A stretch of 54,018 nucleotides of DNA, the filler included, from Sphacelaria rigidula (Eukaryota), in the NCBI GenBank assembly GCA_964200075.2. It is 3 parts of 3 records of this genome, joined end to end, with 100 filler letters (N's around TTAATTAATTAA, not from the genome) between each part and the next. Parts side by side here need not be neighbours in the genome. Positions count along the whole stretch, not along the records: positions 1 to 17,943 come from CAXNAA020000958.1; 2 more parts are not named here. One strand, 5' to 3'. Made by a program: the position numbers and the translations under genes. Numbering within the stretch: the first letter of the stretch is position 1; every line of letters begins with the position of its first letter. Positions 2,281-36,083 of the stretch are shown piece by piece. The notes below the pieces were generated by a model, which did not search any database, was not told the DNA's origin, and saw only the letters and a program-made list of their open reading frames with translations.

Positions 2281-4556
2281 GCGATTGATGGTGTGATAGG
2301 GGTTGGAGATATCAGCAATCACTACAGGGTCGTCTCTGACGACTCGTGTACTGGAGCATGACGCATTTTTCGTGGAACTATCTTGTGTTTCGACTTTTCC
2401 CATCTTGCTGTTGCTGCTGCAGGTCCTGCCGCTGAAGCACCGAGACGAAGTCAAGGGTCCCTTTCCAATAGAAACTGAACCCTCCGATCACGTGCTGCTC
2501 GCCGCGGAGTACAGGATGTAGGTGAAAAAAGTTAGAGCCAACACCGTCGCCGGAGGATGATGTAAAAAATTCTTCACGCTCATGGTAGTTTCAGGAAATA
2601 AGACAGCAGGCACCGTTGGTATTGAGTTAGGTAAATCCCAGCACATGTGCCCCTTTGCCTAGGGGGAGGACTGGACGGGGGGGGAGGTGGGGCGGGGGCG
2701 ACGGAGGGTTCTCATGTCTTGTATGATTGAGCTGTTACGTTGACCGTTGACTCACGTATCTTGGAAATGATGGAGTACTGCCGGCACCGGAGTTGTGCGG
2801 TGTTCGGTAATGTGTGGTGTGGTGAGGAATGAGCTCAAGCCCTCGCTTGTCGGTTGTGCTGTGCATTAATTTTGTGCTCGGAATTGGCGATGCAGGTAAT
2901 TAGATGCTGGGGTGCGGCTTATGCTTGAGGCAACGTTGTTTACTTTGGTGCGATGTACTGTAGTGTAGTTATGAAGGCTCGACGCAAAATTCTGTGCATG
3001 GTGATAGCAATCAACCGAACGGCCGGTGCTGTTTGTACGCTGTTTTGAAAAGACTGTTGATATTTTAGCAGGCCTGTACAAGTGTCATTACTGTGTTTTT
3101 TCAGAAGACAAACTGTTCAGGTTGTTGAGTTACATGACGTGCATGCTGCCTCGAGGAAAAAGCTTGGAAGAGATGGTGGTTGACGTTCCAGTAGCACATA
3201 ATTCGCGTAATGGGTTATTCGAGAATGTAAATACCCGGTGCTTCGCACATCACCAATATTTTGCGATAGACTATCTGCTTTTTGCCGCGTTGCCGGCACC
3301 TACGGTAGTAGTGCTGTGTCAAGGCACCTACCTTATGTACGTCCCCTTGACAACACCTCGCGGTGATGGATTTCCGATTATCCTGAAGATCGTCGTCCGG
3401 GAGTGCGTTGGACTGTGTATGCTACTGAAGGGTACAATGGTGGTAACAGAAACCGGCTTCTCTGCCGTGTCATGGAGCGTGATTTTCGATTTTCGGGGAC
3501 AAAAACTGGATTCGATGAAGCCCTTCGGTAGCAACCGTGCTGGTATAGACGGACCTCAGAGTGGGTCGTGGGCAGCACGAATTTCTGTAGGGTGCACCGT
3601 ATATATGCAAGTCTTTTTAACATTCGCCTCCCAGCATATTTTCCCCCATGGTTTTGAAAGTGTAGGCGTGCTGTTTCGCCGTCGTGGTGAGGTGATGTTG
3701 AACCATGTGGTTGCACGGAGTAGACAATCCGCAGACATCACAATCTCGTCACGAATTGGTGAGGGGGGCTATGGAACACGAAGCACACCGGGGCACCGGA
3801 TAGCGAAAAATGCGGGGGAGTGTGCGTGCGGAGTGTAGAAGCACTAGTAATACAGTGATGCCTTCCCATTCCAGTCGGACCTGGGTCGTAACGTCCTCAA
3901 GAATTCATGACCAAGTTTGTGACTTCTCGAACACCCCTGGAATTGTCGCGTTGATACCTGGTCGTGCAGCACTAGTACAATACTAGGGGCGGGAGGAATG
4001 CTACGGTAGGGGTGCATTTTTTTTGCGAAATCTTGTCTGGTTCAGGGGCTCCTGACGATTCTAGATGCACAAGAATATGGATCAGAGCATCCCCGTTTCC
4101 AGATTCATTCGGGATATCCCCAGCACATTGGAATAGTAATCCTGGCGTATTCTCGCTTATTTTCATAAGTCGTGTTTTAGATGAGATGAAGGGCTCCTGA
4201 CAATTTTGAACTCGGAAAATATTGGTGTACCCCCTACCGTAACATCACTCGGAGACATTTGTGACGATACACTCGGCGTGTACACGTGACCAATCGGCTC
4301 CCATCCAGCATTCTCTTTTTTCATCCCCTCAAGAGTATTCCGTACTGTAGTACTGTGCTTTGATCGCTAGTGCTTGCTCGAGAGTATTTGCGATCCTCTG
4401 CAATCCTGTGGAAGGCTTGTTTGCCTCCAGGGGAATATGAGCCCCCTGGTCGTTTCGCATACCGCACGGATATACTCTGGAGCAATGTTGCAGACGTCGG
4501 ACGAACCATCATTCGTCGAGACGAGTACACTCTTTAAAGTTATTCGAAACACGACC

Positions 4557-5888: not shown

Positions 5889-8800
5889 TTAAGCTCCACA
5901 GGATAAGCATTCCGGTTCCTCCTCTGGCTCCTGCGCCTCTGCTGTGTCCGCTTTCTTCCCTCGTGAAGCCTTCAGCGATGACTGGTCCACAGTGAACTGC
6001 AAATGTTCATTTACGCGGGCAAGATATGGGGACAGTGGAATGAGTAATGTTGACAAATTACGAATGCTTACCTCGATTATTCTACAAACGCCCAACCCAC
6101 GTATCAGTTGAGTAATACTTTACATAAACCAATGAGGGGTTATTCGAATGGTTAGATACCCTCGCCTGTTTCGTGGCCACCGATCATGTCCTAGACAGCG
6201 CAAGTACGGCCAATCAATCTTCGGGTACCATCTGATGGGCTGCTCCTTTACGCGTCGACCCAAATTACTCAAATTTAACCAACGTAAACACACTCACTCC
6301 GCACGGACCTGGATTGCATCAGCCTTGGGGCGGGTGCGGAGGTAGTACATGCCAGTCTTGAGGCCCTTTTTCCATGCGTAGAAGTGCATGGATGATAGCT
6401 TTCCGAAAGATGCCTCCGCCATGTGCACGTTCATCGACTGAGATTGGCAAATGAAAGCTCCTCGGTCCGCCGCCTGGAGACATTTTGGTGCGATGGTGAC
6501 GACCGCAACGGACGAGATGAGAATTCAGTTCGAAATCTTTCCCGGAGGCCTACTCGAGACGCGCCGGATGACAGTTACCTTCCGACTGACATGCATGTGG
6601 CATCAGGCGACTCTCGGGCACAGTCCCACGACTACGGGGTCGAGAACAAGACACCGCCAAAACACACCTGGTTGAGGATGAACTTCTGCTTAATCTCCCA
6701 CACCGTCTTGTATAGGTTCTTGAGTTCCTGCGGGATCTGCCTGACGTTTTGAACGGACCCGTGGTCGGCAATGATCTGATTCCGCACCTCCGGCGTCCAC
6801 AATCCTCTCTCCGTCAAATCCGTTAGGAGATATTTGTTCACGACGGTGAATTCCCCCGCCAATACCCGTCTGTTGTACATATTGCTGCGACACAGGAGCG
6901 CGACCGGGACATGAGAGAGGAACATGTGGAGGTTACGAACGCACATGAATACGCGCTAGCGGGAGTCCAAACGACAATTACTGGGATAAGCATGCTTCTC
7001 TCATTTGGCAGCACCCACGAAATCGTAGCCGGTGTAGACAAACCTCATTCCTCCATTCCTGCTCACCTTGTGAAGGGCTCAACGCTCTCGTTGTTTCCGA
7101 GAATCTGCGCTGTGGACGCTGTGGGCATCGGCGCCACGAGCAGTGAGTTTCGCAGACCATATTGGGCCATCCTTTCCTTGAGACCCGCCCAATCGTGTCT
7201 GTCCGATGGTGTTACGCCCCACAAGTCGAATTGCAGCAAGCCCTCCGACGCTGGTGATCCCTCGTACGTTTCGTACGGCCCCAACTCGCGCGCAAGCTTT
7301 TGACGAAAGGAAAAAGTGAAAGCGGGTTCACGGGAGATGGGTCTTCAGAGTGTATGAGAATGGAATCGATGTGCTCATCATACTGCGGGACACCACCCGA
7401 TGTGATACCATATGTAAGGGAAGACTTGGAAAATGTTTGTGAGCGCAACGGCCCGCTTCTCGTGAGTACGAAGGTGAAAGAGTGCTTTAGCCCGACTGGA
7501 AGTACGACGAGTCGAATTCCCGTCAAGGGAAGAGGGTTTGGGGCAATCAACATGAACCGTACTCATCATATTGCGGGGCACCAACCGTGATGTAATAGCG
7601 AATGTAAGGGAAGATTTTGCAAATGTTTGCGAGCGCAACGGCCCACTACCCGTGAGTACGAGGGTGAACGAGTGCTTTAGCCCGACTGGAAGTACGACGA
7701 GTCGAATTCCCGTTACTGTATGCGCAGTTCATTAGTGAGTTTGGCAACGGGTAAATCTGCCAGCCCCACAGTACCTGCGCAAAATAAACCCCACAGCAAC
7801 TGTCATCAGTGAATACTTACTCGGACGTTAATGTGTAGGCAAAACTGTCCCCAGGAGAGAAACGGCGGAAAGGGTTGTTGGATGGCAGGTGGGCATGAGG
7901 TTATCCTAGCACACGCGGTTCGCCGGTTATTCCATCGGCACAATATCAGCAGGCGGTTCAACGAAGGGACTCCTTTATGCTCGTGAAAAATATCATCCGG
8001 GAAGCTCGGCTCACCTCTACGGAGGCGTTCACGGCGCCGAAGTAGATGGTTTCGAAGATGTCCTTGTTTAACTGGGCCGCCTCCGGAGACTCGAAGGGCA
8101 AGCGCATCTTGATGAAAGCATCAGCAAGACCCTTGGGGGACGGACGTAGAGGTGAAAAGAGTATAAGGCACACGTTGATTTCATTTATCACTCGAAGTGA
8201 AAGTGAGGGAGAACGCACCGGTGGAGAGTGTGTTGAGTACTGCTTCCGTGTATGCTTCCGTCACTCGATTGTGCAAGGTAGTACCATGGGAGGAATACAG
8301 CACTGAAGAAAGTGTTTGCGAGCGCAACGGCCCGCTACCCGTGAGTACGAAGGTGAACGAGTGCTTTAGCCCGAATATGGAGCTACGACTTGCGTCGAAG
8401 CCCGGTTTTTATATGCGCAGTTGATGGTGAGTCTGGCAACGGGTAGATCTGCCAGCCTCGCAGTACCTGCGCACAAATCACTACAGAACATGTCGACATC
8501 CCCTCCGACATGGGATGAGCGTTGACGGTCGTCAGTCGTTGTTCCTTCAGTCCACGTAGATCACAACTGATACGTGAGTGTCGACAGAATGAGGAGTTAC
8601 GTGAATATTACACGCGGATGGTACATGGAAACATACCTGCACCCCGATGCCGATTGGGCGGTGACGCATGTTGGAGTTCCGCGCTTCCTCGATGGGATAA
8701 TAGTTGACTTCGATCACCCTGTTCAGGTTTCGTGTCACCACCTCGGCGATGTGCTGCAGCTTCTCGAAGTCGTAGGTCGCGTTGCCCTCGGTGACTTCAC

Positions 8801-11544
8801 CCCCCATGCGTCCGTTGGGTGACGACGGCACCGTCGGTGCTGGAATGACTAATGCCGAGAGGTTGATGCTCGCCAGATTACACACAGCCACCTGATTTTT
8901 GGATTTACAACACACAGCAAAAGTGCCGAGAGGTGTTGAGAGAAACACCTTACTGCGAGGACATCGAGGGCGACGCACAATCAAAGTAGGGGGTATTCAA
9001 GTGCAAGACTCCATATCGTGTACATACCTCATCAGGGGCGGTGTATTCCACGATCTCCGTACAAAGGTTGGAAGACTTGATGGTGCCCAGATTCTTCTGG
9101 TTGCTCTTGAAGTTGCACGCATCCTTGTACAACATGTACGGCGTGCCCGTCTCGACCTGAGACTCGAGAATAGCATCCCACAGCACACGGGCCTTCACTG
9201 TGCGCCGGGAGAGGCCGGCCTGCGCCTCATATCTTTCGTACAGGTTCTGTTTCCGAAGTGAGAATTCAACGAGTTCCGAACAGGCAAGAATCCAAGTTAG
9301 AGCAATTACCGACTCGACGAATCTCAAGATACAGTATGCCTTCATCTTCCGCGTGCTCTTACAATACAACGCTCATACTTCCGGTAGTTTCTAACGACAA
9401 CGTACCGATCGAGATACAAGGGCCTCTTGTGTCATGGTTCAGGCACGAGAGTAGGGGAAAACCTCGGTCATCACTCACCTTAAATTCGTCGCTGTGTGTG
9501 TCGCTGAGCCCTGGCGCTTCGTTGGGACAGAACAGGTTCCAGTCACCGTCAGTCTCGACCCTCTGTGCAGTGTAGCAAAACGATTACAACATATTTTGAC
9601 GCGCGAAGATGAGGGCCGGAGCATTAAACGATTTGAAACGAATCACGCTTGAGTTCAGATGATGGCTGAGCGATTATTAGGTACATCACAATTACCTCCG
9701 GCCCTCACTCACGATTGCTCTGTACCCACCTGCATGAAAAGGTCGGGGATCCACATCGCATAGAAAAGATCGCGCGCACGCTCTAGCTCATTCCCGTGGT
9801 TCTTCTTCAGATCCAGGAAAGCTACAATGTCCGCGTGCCAGGGCTCCAGGTACACTGCGATCGACCCCTTTCGTTTCCCGCCTCCCTGCAGGCGGCAGAG
9901 AACAAGAGGAGACAAGAGGAGGGTTGTGAGGGGGGATCCAGACGGCAGGTTTCGAGCAGGGTTTTGAGTACACGGGATAGCACAAGACAATTACAAAGCA
10001 CCAAGCGCGGACTCCTGACTGACCTGATCCACGTATCGCGCCGTGTTGTTGAATACCCGCAGCATGGGTACAATTCCGTTAGAGGATCCGTTAGTGCCGC
10101 GGATGTACGAGTTCGCCGCTCGCACGTGGTGGATAGAGAGTCCGATGCCGCCCGCGTGCTTGGAGATCTGGGCACACTGCGATACAGGAAGAAGAGAGTG
10201 ACATCAAGGTATGCTGAGCGCAAATGAAAAAGTGGAGATTTTTGTTCGGAGAAATATCGGTCCTGAGATCTCCATCTAATATAACAGAACAAAATCAAGA
10301 GATCTATGCCTGGGAAAAGTCCATATCAAACTTCCATGTCTCGGAGCCCATTAATCCAACACACCTGCTTGAGGGTGTCGTATATTCCGGAGATACTGTC
10401 CTCCTTCATAGTGAGCAAGAAGCACGAGGACATCTGCGGCTTCGGGGTTCCGGCATTGAAAAGGGTTGGGGTTGCATGGGTGAAGAGCCTCTGGGACATG
10501 AGGTCATACGTCTCGATAACCTTGTCGATGTCGTCCTTGTGGATACCAACCGACACGCGCATGATCATATGCTGCGGCCGCTCCACCACCTTGCCGTCTG
10601 CCTTGAGCAGGTAGGACCTTTCTCACGAGGGTCAAGCAAGGACACGAGCAACACCACGAGACGACACAGGACACGGAAATGAAACAACCGGACAAGGGGC
10701 TTGGCGATGAGACATGCTTATTTCCGTACTCAAGTCCACGTCCGAATTCGAACGAAGGCGTCATTTTTTCTCGTCGCACTTTTGCCACACACCTCTCGAG
10801 AGTCTTGAAGCCGAAGTAGTCGTAGTCGAAATCACGGTCAGAAATGATGGCCGAATTGAGGCGTTGCTTGTTATTTTGGATGATTCCGTACACGTCGTCG
10901 GCGATCAGTCCGGCCTTCTGCCCGGTCTTGGGGTGCACGTAGTGATACAATTTCTCGATCACATCACTGAACACCTGTGAGGGATGGGAAAACGGGGGGG
11001 GAGGGGGGATCCAGACGGAGCAAGTAGACGTGTTCAATTCCATGTATACGTGGTTCCGACGATAAATTCTGATTACACCCCTCATTGCAACATCCCAACT
11101 GTCGCTCAACACTAGAAATATTTTCGCTCGCGTCACCACCTTGTTCGTCTGCTTGTGAAGGTTAGAAACGGAGATTCGCGCCGCCAGCTTGGAGAAGTCC
11201 GGGTGCTGCGTGGCCATGTAGGCGGAAGTTTGAGCCGCTAGCTCATCCAGCTCAATCGTTGTCACCCCTGGGTATACGCCTTGAATAACCTGAATGAAAT
11301 AGCGGTCAAAGGAAGCATGAATTTCAACTATATGCGTCCAGTCGTTCAAAAAACATGAGGTGTCGTTGGATGATGCAAAATCCAGACACGAACGAGACAC
11401 CGTTCCTGCACAACTCACCTTCTGCGAGATCTTGGCGGAATCGACAAAACGGTTGTCTAGTCCATAGCAGAGCTTGTTGATGCGCGAGGTGATCTTGTCG
11501 AACTTCACGTCCTCCCGCCTTCCGTCTCTTTTAACGACGAACAT
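5889..11544 (-). CDS. RRM1: Ribonucleoside-diphosphate reductase large subunit (class Ia, R1/alpha), spliced, 14 coding exons, ~804 aa
   Basis: Exons read by hand with GT..AG boundaries and consistent phase: 11544-11419, 11289-11140, 10974-10793, 10617-10365, 10176-10024, 9885-9730, 9562-9479, 9246-9028, 8891-8637, 8131-8015, 7296-7067, 6884-6668, 6473-6309, 5996-5889 (TAA). The product has the ATP-cone start [33 protein letters not shown] (catalytic Asn/Cys/Glu), [27 protein letters not shown] and the C-terminal CxxC (CLSCGA). The true start codon could lie in a further upstream exon. Confidence 0.96.
7431..7523 (-). ncRNA. 5'-truncated tandem duplicate of the H/ACA RNA (middle and 3' hairpins plus ACA only)
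   Basis: Part of a tandem duplication with ~190-bp period (7375-7523 vs 7562-7713). It keeps the pocket strands and ACA (7434-7436) but lacks hairpin 1 and the H box. Confidence 0.5.
7621..7781 (-). ncRNA. Intronic box H/ACA snoRNA candidate, full-length copy (RRM1 intron 8014-7297)
   Basis: Sense to the host pre-mRNA. Hairpin 1 closed by UGCGCAG/CUGCGCA, H box ACAGUA (7714-7719), small internal hairpin, 3' hairpin closed by CGGGC/GCUCG with internal loop, then ACA (7624-7626) plus 3 nt. Confidence 0.78.
8310..8473 (-). ncRNA. Intronic box H/ACA snoRNA candidate, paralogous full-length copy (RRM1 intron 8636-8132)
   Basis: Same architecture: H box AUAAAA (8407-8412), middle hairpin CGAC-GCAA-GUCG (GNRA loop), ACA at 8313-8315. 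Similarity to the 7621-7781 copy starts at the 5' stem and stops at the ACA box. Confidence 0.78.
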
Positions 11545-17943: not shown

Positions 17944-18043
17944 NNNNNNNNNNNNNNNNNNNNNNNNNNNNNNNNNNNNNNNNNNNNTTAATTAATTAAN
18001 NNNNNNNNNNNNNNNNNNNNNNNNNNNNNNNNNNNNNNNNNNN
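17944..18043. other. Assembly gap with artificial TTAATTAATTAA linker
   Basis: 44 N + TTAATTAATTAA (stops in all six frames) + 44 N; identical to the gap at 35984-36083. Confidence 0.95.
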
Positions 18044-35983: not shown

Positions 35984-36083
35984 NNNNNNNNNNNNNNNNN
36001 NNNNNNNNNNNNNNNNNNNNNNNNNNNTTAATTAATTAANNNNNNNNNNNNNNNNNNNNNNNNNNNNNNNNNNNNNNNNNNNN
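35984..36083. other. Assembly gap with artificial TTAATTAATTAA linker
   Basis: 44 N + linker + 44 N. Confidence 0.95.

Follow-up and report, generated by a model that had tools for sequence, protein, structure and literature searches.

A probable pair of paralogous box H/ACA snoRNA genes in consecutive introns of the ribonucleotide reductase large-subunit gene of the brown alga Sphacelaria rigidula

Introduction

In animals and plants, paralogous intronic snoRNAs occur in successive introns of one host gene. Among individual RNAs, the closest described relative in function of the locus reported here is human SNORA21 (ACA21), whose host is RPL23 and which is assigned in a review table to pseudouridine 4401 of 28S rRNA (psi4401; PMC6466398). 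This position, near the peptidyl-transferase centre, is 89% modified in human cells (PMC6182160). According to the table data of an Entamoeba histolytica study, two predicted H/ACA paralogs, ACA-Eh-LSU2997a and ACA-Eh-LSU2997b, share one assigned site, which is homologous to U4401 of human 28S and precedes the snR46/ACA16 site by 11 nt (PMC3542256). For brown algae, the only snoRNAs found in our literature search were computational predictions from Ectocarpus, as described in excerpts of PMC4513859. No paper pairing box H/ACA with a stramenopile was found, and among the matches listed none concerned snoRNAs in introns of ribonucleotide reductase (RNR) genes. The snoRNAs of brown algae, and of stramenopiles generally, are almost uncharacterised.

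We analysed a 54,018-nucleotide stretch of DNA from Sphacelaria rigidula (hereafter the window), in which an earlier note had pointed to a repeated intronic element. Two full copies of it (copies 2 and 3) are likely to be paralogous box H/ACA guide snoRNA genes of about 165 nt, one in each of two introns of RRM1 and in sense orientation. The locus resembles the animal and plant arrangement in having one predicted snoRNA per intron, in sense, with only the RNA unit conserved between the introns; it differs in that the host is the gene of a DNA-precursor enzyme, in a brown alga. With SNORA21 the algal element shares a predicted target uridine (the equivalent of 28S 4401) and, as a predicted box H/ACA RNA, a sense position in an intron of a protein-coding host. 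Unlike SNORA21 (Rfam family RF00412), it has no Rfam match (sense strand, E up to 10), another host gene and an extra hinge stem. No shared target is proposed for the second hairpin, and the likeness is one of predicted function, not of established descent. The likeness to the two Entamoeba RNAs is by target site, from table data, and by the presence of two paralogs for that one site; the 11-nt spacing to the snR46/ACA16 site listed there recurs in the stand-in rRNAs used below.

Results

The element lies in sense orientation in two consecutive RRM1 introns

The host of both full copies is the RNR large-subunit gene (RRM1) on the minus strand of the window; one exon product matches a protein labelled Sphacelaria rigidula with 100% identity. 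Exons at 7067-7296, 8015-8130 and 8636-8889, with CT..AC joints, were placed from spliced contigs of runs X1-X3. These runs were judged to be RNA by those same contigs, which cannot show the ends or the level of a small RNA. By these joints the copies fall within introns, at 7297-8014 and 8131-8635, and run in the sense direction of the pre-mRNA. The description of a ~160-nt element in two consecutive RRM1 introns, given in the earlier note, was thus borne out by spliced RNA contigs, the full copies measuring 163-166 nt. The features of the locus are the following:

7297-8014, minus strand: host intron with copies 1 and 2, 718 nt (joint 7296/8015 spliced in 3/3 RNA runs)
8015-8130, minus strand: RNR large-subunit exon separating the two host introns (spliced RNA contigs)
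8131-8635, minus strand: host intron with copy 3, 505 nt (joint 8130/8636 spliced in 3/3 RNA runs)
7431-7523, minus strand: copy 1, a partial copy in tandem that has the hinge stem, hairpin 3 and ACA (7434-7436)
7621-7783, minus strand: copy 2, full predicted H/ACA snoRNA, about 163 nt (alignment and fold)
8310-8475, minus strand: copy 3, full predicted H/ACA snoRNA, about 166 nt (alignment to copy 2 and fold)
7371-7713, minus strand: tandem duplication of period 190 (7371-7523 against 7559-7713)

The host mRNA contig was abundant in all three RNA runs. Intron RNA contigs had a depth of 3-8, against 224-333 for the mRNA, and extended into the flanking intron. Such run-on cover is what pre-mRNA would give, and no RNA of the predicted size appeared among the contigs; stretches of intron lacking cover carry no weight in either direction. 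In animals and plants, intronic snoRNAs are often hosted by genes outside translation, and a non-ribosomal host such as RRM1 is therefore unremarkable in itself.

Boundaries, partial copy and copy number

The 3' part of the element is present three times (7429-7495, 7619-7685 and 8308-8374; 90-93% alike). The full copies 2 and 3 aligned over 171 columns (7621-7785 with 8309-8478; 85% alike, E 3e-45), whereas their 60-nt flanks do not align. Similarity had been said to span the first stem to the ACA box, and this held: it sets in 2-5 nt ahead of the first stem and breaks off 3-4 nt past the ACA, the latter distance being only a proxy for the spacing between the ACA and a mature 3' end (3 nt in the class).

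Copy 1, the leftmost, has neither hairpin 1 nor an H box. Its hairpin 3 carries four private changes, two of which break stem pairs, and fails the hairpin descriptor; copy 1 is a decaying partial tandem duplicate. The duplication of period 190 that includes it carries the 3' half of the element together with about 60 nt of downstream intron. The hinge is identical at 29/29 positions in copies 1 and 2 and the flank at 47/62, and gene conversion may therefore blur arguments from rates. A relative-rate argument from copy 1 was set aside as unclean for the same identity of the hinge.

No further copy was found within the 54-kb window beyond these three. In the DNA run X5, loose ends at 7689 and 8304 revealed at least one additional genomic copy with different flanks, and the depth of the element was 1-2.5x that of its flanks, so that the snoRNA-like family is a low-copy one. 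The term "expanding family" used in the earlier note is accordingly not supported: besides the two complete copies there are a partial one in decay and, at low copy depth, at least one more elsewhere in the genome. A pattern built from the two conserved hairpin-3 blocks gave 0 matches in metagenome contigs. The full RRM1 protein retrieved 80 related loci, all at 72% identity or less and with spans equal to the intronless coding length, and yielded no brown-alga intron. In run X3, whose sample carries sequence variants, we counted 5 differences over the 165 nt of copy 2 and 4 over 214 nt of the upstream intron; the whole element is therefore not visibly more constrained between samples.

Two guide-type hairpins, an H box and an ACA box

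Read in sense, each full copy consists of a hairpin, an ANANNA box, a short variable stem, a second large hairpin and an ACA, in that order. Minimum free energy folds and the two-sequence consensus fold gave two large hairpins with internal loops and an extra short hinge stem. The parts were placed as follows:

8414-8473, minus strand: copy 3 hairpin 1, with a 7-bp lower stem, internal pocket and upper stem (fold)
8407-8412, minus strand: copy 3 H box AUAAAA, 1 nt after hairpin 1
8374-8406, minus strand: copy 3 hinge stem-loop, variable, differing from copy 2 at 11/33 aligned columns (fold)
8319-8373, minus strand: copy 3 hairpin 3, with 5' pocket strand UAAAGCA (8362-8368) and 3' pocket strand CCGUUGC (8324-8330)
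8313-8315, minus strand: copy 3 ACA box, 15 nt between upper-stem base and ACA
7721-7781, minus strand: copy 2 hairpin 1, followed by H box ACAGUA (7714-7719) and hinge stem (7685-7713) (fold)
7630-7684, minus strand: copy 2 hairpin 3, with pocket strands 7673-7679 and 7635-7641 and the ACA at 7624-7626 (fold)

Read along the minus strand, the ACA boxes run 7626-7624 in copy 2, 8315-8313 in copy 3 and 7436-7434 in copy 1. The H boxes of copies 2 and 3, each 1 nt after the hairpin-1 stem, have only three A's in common, and these are just the invariant A's of ANANNA, as the earlier note had observed. Another genomic copy, seen in the reverse complement of 30 letters at a loose end of run X5, has AGAUCA at the place of the H box. 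The distance from the upper-stem base to the ACA in hairpin 3 is 15 nt in copies 2 and 3 (14-16 nt in the class), and that from the upper stem to the H box in hairpin 1 is 14-16 nt, depending on the upper-stem start chosen.

Divergence between copies 2 and 3 is unevenly spread, with 2/55 differences in hairpin 3, 7/61 in hairpin 1 and 11/33 in the hinge. All 14 nucleotides of the hairpin-3 pocket are identical in three copies, and both hairpin-3 differences between copies 2 and 3 preserve pairing through G-U wobble. The stem variants CUCGU/ACGGG, UUCGU/ACGGG and UUCGU/ACGAG, quoted in support of conserved pairing, are all three present; no pair of hairpins 1 and 3 was changed on both sides between copies 2 and 3. 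Hairpin 1 varies in its 3' pocket strand, both from copy 2 to copy 3 and among samples.

The folds were only modestly better than those of shuffled sequences (z -1.2 and -1.9). The consensus fold reached -45.85 kcal/mol in sense and -43.8 kcal/mol in antisense, and folding is thus not decisive for the choice of strand. A loose H/ACA descriptor was also passed by 44 of the 2099 ACA sites in the window. The reading as a box H/ACA RNA is supported by the architecture, both boxes, the 15-nt spacing from pocket to box and the bipartite match of hairpin 3 described below. Calling it a "three-hairpin H/ACA" is not supported: only two of the hairpins are of the guide type, and the middle one is a short hinge stem, variable in length, that has no pocket.

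Other RNA classes

The earlier note had proposed a check against the Rfam covariance models, and this went against its reading: on the sense strand no H/ACA match was obtained at gathering score or at E up to 10, either with 2.4 kb or with each copy alone. The matches that did appear were at chance level, among them the 5' half of SNORA35 in antisense (E 6) and the C/D RNA sR35 (E 9.3), the latter arising from an AUGAUGA motif. Two such motifs (about 7567-7573 and 7379-7385, minus strand) were considered as C/D snoRNAs and rejected by reading, one having no downstream CUGA and the other a CUGA only 26 nt away and no terminal stem. Cajal-body H/ACA RNAs (scaRNAs) carry the CAB box motif UGAG. 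The apical loops here are AUUUACCCG or AUCUACCCG in hairpin 1 and ACUC in hairpin 3, and a scaRNA was rejected on the absence of a CAB box from both.

The hairpin-3 pocket matches stand-in rRNAs around the equivalent of human psi4401

Guide matches were sought in 13 stand-in rRNA pieces, which come from eukaryote contaminants in prokaryote assemblies and are not the alga's own rRNA; one unpaired guide nucleotide was permitted beside the upper stem on each side. The best hairpin-3 match, among five of at least 9 bp in these pieces, was of 6+5 bp with one G-U. It fell at one and the same position in the two complete stand-in LSU rRNAs (U3388 of L118 and U2922 of L114), and 10 of its 11 pairs were kept in a further piece, L138. 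The paired site reads 5'-GCGACG-U-N-GCUUU-3' in the stand-in LSU rRNAs, around a single U. On the full rRNA set of L118 (1824 U's), 3 of 400 shuffled guides reached the same criterion. We mapped the modified sites listed for human 28S (PMC6182160, Table 1) onto L118. The best register of the whole LSU, which put the right base at 16 of 19 sites against 13 for the next, identifies the target U with human psi4401. With strict pairing flush to the upper stem, no rRNA target of hairpin 3 exceeded 8/14. An alternative register of the hairpin-3 upper stem was rejected: its best matches, of 3+7 bp, lay at an SSU site and had a poor 5' side, and it costs copy 3 a pair.

Hairpin 1 of copy 2 had no convincing target in the stand-in rRNAs. 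That of copy 3 gave a weak candidate of 7+4 bp with two G-U, equalled by 25 of 400 shuffles, at the LSU U corresponding to human U2346, a position that carries no modification in human and is not a listed psi in 28S (PMC6182160, Table 1).

Weighing of alternative explanations

The copies might be a low-copy intronic repeat, formed by segmental or tandem duplication or as a small non-autonomous mobile element, whose fit to the H/ACA model is due to chance. The ease with which ACA sites of the window pass the loose descriptor would agree with this, as would the weak fold z-scores, the near-equal folding of both strands, the duplication of period 190, by which the locus is seen to duplicate, the intron RNA contigs at pre-mRNA level and the lack of an Rfam match. 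Against it, the repeated unit begins and stops where the predicted RNA does, the A's of ANANNA are all that three different H-box hexamers have in common, and the invariant hairpin-3 pocket fits a known psi site, as few shuffled guides do (3/400). A transposable element, SINE or MITE in particular was rejected: the window holds no other copy, DNA depth is 1-2.5x baseline, and by reading of the flanks neither a terminal inverted repeat nor a target-site duplication nor an A-tail was seen. TE-like dispersal, which the earlier note had named as counting against a snoRNA, was likewise not observed in the 54-kb window or in the DNA-run depth. We regard a repeat lacking any RNA function as unlikely.

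Another explanation accepts a snoRNA origin and supposes that the copies are non-functional, or that only one of them works, the working gene lying elsewhere in the genome. The further copy with different flanks (loose ends 7689 and 8304), the visible decay of copy 1, the variation of the hairpin-1 3' pocket strand between copies 2 and 3 and between samples, and a polymorphism density in the element no lower than in the intron are in keeping with it. We consider it very unlikely: although the flanks of copies 2 and 3 have diverged beyond alignment, hairpin 3 has all its stem pairs and its whole pocket in each, and both boxes are kept. A further proposal is that hosting by RRM1, as an S-phase gene, ties rRNA pseudouridylation to the cell cycle. 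The only points in its favour are general ones: many eukaryotes regulate their RNR genes with the cell cycle, and an intronic snoRNA needs transcription of its host. Mature snoRNPs are long-lived and snoRNA hosts are typically just well-expressed genes, and the abundance of the host mRNA in 3/3 RNA runs fits hitch-hiking on a strongly expressed gene. Such a coupling therefore appears highly improbable.

Discussion

The explanation that we prefer for copies 2 and 3, a pair of intronic box H/ACA guide snoRNA genes, implies a conventional pathway. By analogy with intronic snoRNAs elsewhere, the RNA would be expressed with its host, released from the spliced intron and cut back by exonucleases as far as the H/ACA protein complex (Cbf5/dyskerin, Nop10, Nhp2 and Gar1), which it presumably binds. 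Its hairpin-3 pocket would then pair with LSU rRNA to either side of a single uridine close to the peptidyl-transferase centre. Since this uridine is the equivalent of human psi4401, the RNA should direct its conversion to pseudouridine. The 5' hairpin would complete the bipartite architecture as its other half, whereas the short stem that follows the H box is a variable hinge insert. Judged from sequence, the best reading of the predicted snoRNA is as a functional counterpart of human SNORA21 (ACA21), with no detectable sequence homology to it.

On a further reading, which seems to us quite unlikely, the two paralogs are diverging in function. They would share an ancient hairpin-3 guide for the psi4401-equivalent site, and their 5' hairpins, with 3' pocket strands that differ and also vary among samples, may be acquiring lineage-specific targets, a candidate for copy 3 being the LSU U at the position of human U2346. 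Expression of the set would be tied to a proliferation-linked host.

The probable two-copy intronic H/ACA locus in RRM1 is a new example of an ordinary arrangement, not a new mechanism. It is useful as an annotation and as a seed for a covariance model. If confirmed, it would provide a concrete H/ACA snoRNA with a testable target from a brown alga, and would suggest that the pseudouridine at the position of human 28S 4401, predicted also in Entamoeba according to the table data cited above, is old and widespread among eukaryotes.

Repeats of the element in two introns of RRM1

The window is divided at 17944-18043 and 35984-36083, in each case by a pair of 44-nt N runs (17944-17987 and 18000-18043; 35984-36027 and 36040-36083). 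Of the resulting three parts, each about 17.9 kb long, the first holds the copies of the element. The gene for the ribonucleotide reductase large subunit (RRM1) lies there on the minus strand, as judged by open frames. The 84 residues encoded by the exon at 8637-8888 (minus) match, at 100% identity, a protein of 805 residues that carries the label Sphacelaria rigidula, a brown alga; the relatives that rank next, at 66-80%, come from other brown algae. In the database, the contig with this protein measures 17943 nt, so the window looks like separate contigs joined end to end. Since contigs of the RNA runs X1-X3 are spliced at 7296/8015 and 8130/8636, among other CT..AC joints, the RRM1 exons here are 7067-7296, 8015-8130 and 8636-8889. 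The same spliced contigs delimit the host introns:

7297-8014, minus strand: host intron of copies 1 and 2, 718 nt
8131-8635, minus strand: host intron of copy 3, 505 nt

The repeat announced by the earlier note is indeed present at its claimed position, far beyond chance: copy 2 (7621-7785) is 85% identical to copy 3 (8309-8478) across 171 alignment columns (E 3e-45), and the partial copy 1 (7400-7523) matches 124 nt of copy 2 at 90%. No alignment was obtained between copies 2 and 3 in their 60-nt flanks, on one side or the other, and nothing else in the 54-kb window resembled copies 1-3. Copy 1 is included in a tandem duplication of period 190, whose unit consists of the 3' half of the element and about 60 nt of downstream intron. 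Inside this unit, a C-box-like AUGAUGA motif was observed downstream of copy 2 (7567-7573, minus) and of copy 1 (7379-7385, minus), and it was the cause of a chance-level sR35 match in Rfam. A C/D snoRNA is probably not present at either site, one being without a D box and the other having CUGA just 26 nt off and no terminal stem.

A repeat of this kind might also be a transposon. Contig depth in the DNA run X5, when summed, was 95-164 over the element versus 65-80 in adjoining sequence; the copies in the window have words in common with one another, and diverged copies would escape such a measure. The same run (over window 7658-7689 and 8304-8374) contains an extra genomic copy whose flanks differ from those of the window copies, with a shorter hinge and 6 mismatches in 71 nt of hairpin 3, so one or more copies lie elsewhere in the genome. 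Together, the depth and this copy with other flanks (record 20; loose ends at 7689 and 8304) mean that the family is a handful of copies and not a dispersed one. On reading, the flanks showed neither terminal inverted repeats nor target-site duplications nor A-tails. The transposon check raised by the earlier note thus gave a low copy number, as far as the depth measure reaches, and no ends of the transposon type. On conservation in orthologous introns, one of the refuting conditions of the earlier note, two metagenome scans yielded no family member, and the RRM1 genes found there were all intronless and distant.

Anatomy and folding of the element

Parts of the element, read on the sense strand:
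Hairpin 1 (folds): 7-bp lower stem UGCGCAG/CUGCGCA, internal loop, upper stem
H box (ANANNA): 1 nt after hairpin 1; ACAGUA in copy 2, AUAAAA in copy 3
Hinge stem-loop (folds): after the H box; variable in sequence and length
Hairpin 3 (folds): lower stem CGGGC/GCUCG; pocket strands UAAAGCA and CCGUUGC
ACA box (alignment): 15 nt after the end of the hairpin 3 upper stem; 3 further nt follow, and then copy similarity ends

At the H-box position, the extra genomic copy reads AGAUCA (X5 loose end, reverse complement of the printed letters). All that the three hexamers share, therefore, is the set of three A's defining the box. The description of a three-hairpin H/ACA RNA holds for its parts but not for a third module: the middle hairpin lacks both a pocket and its own box and is an insert in the hinge.

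Folding gave z-scores of -1.2 and -1.9 for the sense strand and of +0.2 and -0.5 for the antisense strand, and the two-sequence consensus fold had an energy of -45.85 (sense) versus -43.8 kcal/mol (antisense). Comparison of copies 2 and 3 in this consensus fold showed no pair, in either hairpin 1 or hairpin 3, with both partners substituted. A loose H/ACA descriptor, requiring a lower stem, a pocket and an upper stem at 14-16 nt from the box, was passed by copies 2 and 3 and failed by copy 1; among the 2099 ACA sites of the window, 331 pass its 3' module and 44 the full pattern. Rfam, to which the earlier note had looked for confirmation, gave no relevant match to the element, either at gathering score or at E up to 10. 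Structure alone is not much of a proof of H/ACA identity.

RNA contigs over the introns had a depth of 3-8, versus 224-333 for the spliced mRNA, and continued from the element into flanking intron. This is the pattern that unspliced precursor gives, and such contigs cannot reveal a small RNA.

Predicted target of hairpin 3

Eukaryotic rDNA contaminating prokaryote assemblies, found by a standard rDNA primer and confirmed by Rfam, was used as stand-in rRNA in place of the alga's own. The stand-in L118 provides complete SSU, 5.8S and LSU, and L114 a complete LSU; the remaining ones are partial. When the guide of hairpin 3 was made to pair flush to the upper stem, no target above 8/14 was found in the stand-ins. 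Under a relaxed rule, allowing one unpaired guide nucleotide beside the upper stem on each side, five matches of at least 9 bp were found among 13 stand-in rRNA pieces. The best one, of 11 bp including one G-U, falls on the same site in both complete LSUs (L118 U3388, L114 U2922). In the predicted pairing, rRNA 5'-GCGACG on the 5' side of the target U pairs with guide CGUUGC, while on the 3' side, after the target U and one unpaired base, rRNA GCUUU pairs with guide AAAGC. In a third stand-in, from a viral collection, all but one of the 11 pairs are retained. Shuffling of both guide strands reached equal quality on the whole L118 rRNA set (6098 nt, 1824 U's) in 3 cases out of 400. This predicted guide-target match would be the decisive addition to the structural evidence for an H/ACA RNA.

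Table 1 of Taoka et al. 2018 (PMC6182160), which lists human modifications, was then placed on the stand-ins, with all registers tried. On L118, the best register of the whole LSU was the one that takes the target as human 28S 4401: it brings 16 of the 19 modified positions onto the right base, all nine from 4373 to 4441 among them, versus 13 for the next. It was also the best for the more divergent L114, but by 12 versus 11. Human psi4401 is 89% modified (PMC6182160); by chance, given the 106 pseudouridines counted in that table, a random U of the L118 set would be listed about 1 time in 17. A review table assigns psi4401 to SNORA21/ACA21, hosted by RPL23 (PMC6466398), and a prediction study gives two Entamoeba H/ACA RNAs for the homologue of 4401, 11 nt before the snR46/ACA16 site (PMC3542256). 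The same 11-nt spacing is found in the stand-in rRNAs. The predicted target of hairpin 3 is thus most likely the LSU uridine equivalent to human psi4401. Although they share this predicted target with human SNORA21, copies 2 and 3 were not filed in the SNORA21 family, because they gave no match to its Rfam model.

Hairpin 1 has a 5' pocket strand common to copies 2 and 3 and a 3' pocket strand that differs. For copy 3, one candidate (7+4 bp with two G-U) was found at an LSU site conserved in five stand-ins, which maps to human U2346; 25 of 400 shuffles did equally well, and this uridine is absent from the human table (PMC6182160). Nothing comparable was found for copy 2 on the stand-in rRNAs, and no target was assigned to hairpin 1.

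The plus strand at 7635-7644, like the corresponding sequence of copies 1 and 3, seems to resemble a conserved bacterial 16S motif. This resemblance, lying in the 3' pocket and lower stem of hairpin 3, was taken for coincidence. The prokaryote-titled assemblies with eukaryotic rDNA (SSU, 5.8S and LSU by Rfam) were L084, L095, L114, L118, L120, L122 and L130; such rDNA in bacterial or archaeal assemblies is contamination. The L084 LSU carries a group I intron at 2120-2540.

Variation between copies and samples

When copy 2 is compared with copy 3, two of the 55 positions of hairpin 3 are changed, both by wobble changes with the pair kept; the changes amount to 7 of 61 in hairpin 1, 3 of 7 in the H-box region and 11 of 33 columns in the hinge. 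All 14 nt of the hairpin 3 pocket are identical in the three copies. Copy 1 has neither hairpin 1 nor an H box. Its hairpin 3 shows four changes that the other copies do not share, and two of these break pairs (the terminal lower-stem pair and one upper-stem pair); we read copy 1 as a decaying partial duplicate. Because the hinge is identical between copies 1 and 2 (29/29) while the downstream flank of the same pair matches at 47/62, gene conversion may be at work among the copies.

The RNA run X3 differs from the window at 5 positions in the 165 nt of copy 2 (7645, 7710, 7727, 7730 and 7754) and at 4 in 214 nt of upstream intron; its contig depth here is 5-8, and single differences may be errors. 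Of the five, two are pair-preserving changes in the stems of hairpins 1 and 3, a third disrupts a pair of the hinge stem, another is located in an apical loop, and the last affects the 3' pocket strand of hairpin 1. This polymorphism and the identity of the hinge count against a simple selection story. The changes at 7727 and 7730 make the hairpin 1 3' pocket region of copy 2 like that of copy 3 and of the extra genomic copy, possibly by gene conversion. Over window 7490-7999, the X3 variants include a GAG insertion behind 7558.

Nature of the element

The most likely reading is that copies 2 and 3 are true genes for box H/ACA guide snoRNAs, intron-encoded and in sense orientation. Their 3' hairpin is predicted to be directed at the LSU psi4401 equivalent and would be SNORA21-like in action. 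In animals and plants it is ordinary for successive introns to carry paralogs, one snoRNA to each intron, with the RNA unit alone conserved. RRM1 as a host is a curiosity, and the coupling to the cell cycle that had been proposed from it found no support in any analysis made. H/ACA RNAs are barely described in the brown algae, and copies 2 and 3 add one of a known type to this lineage.
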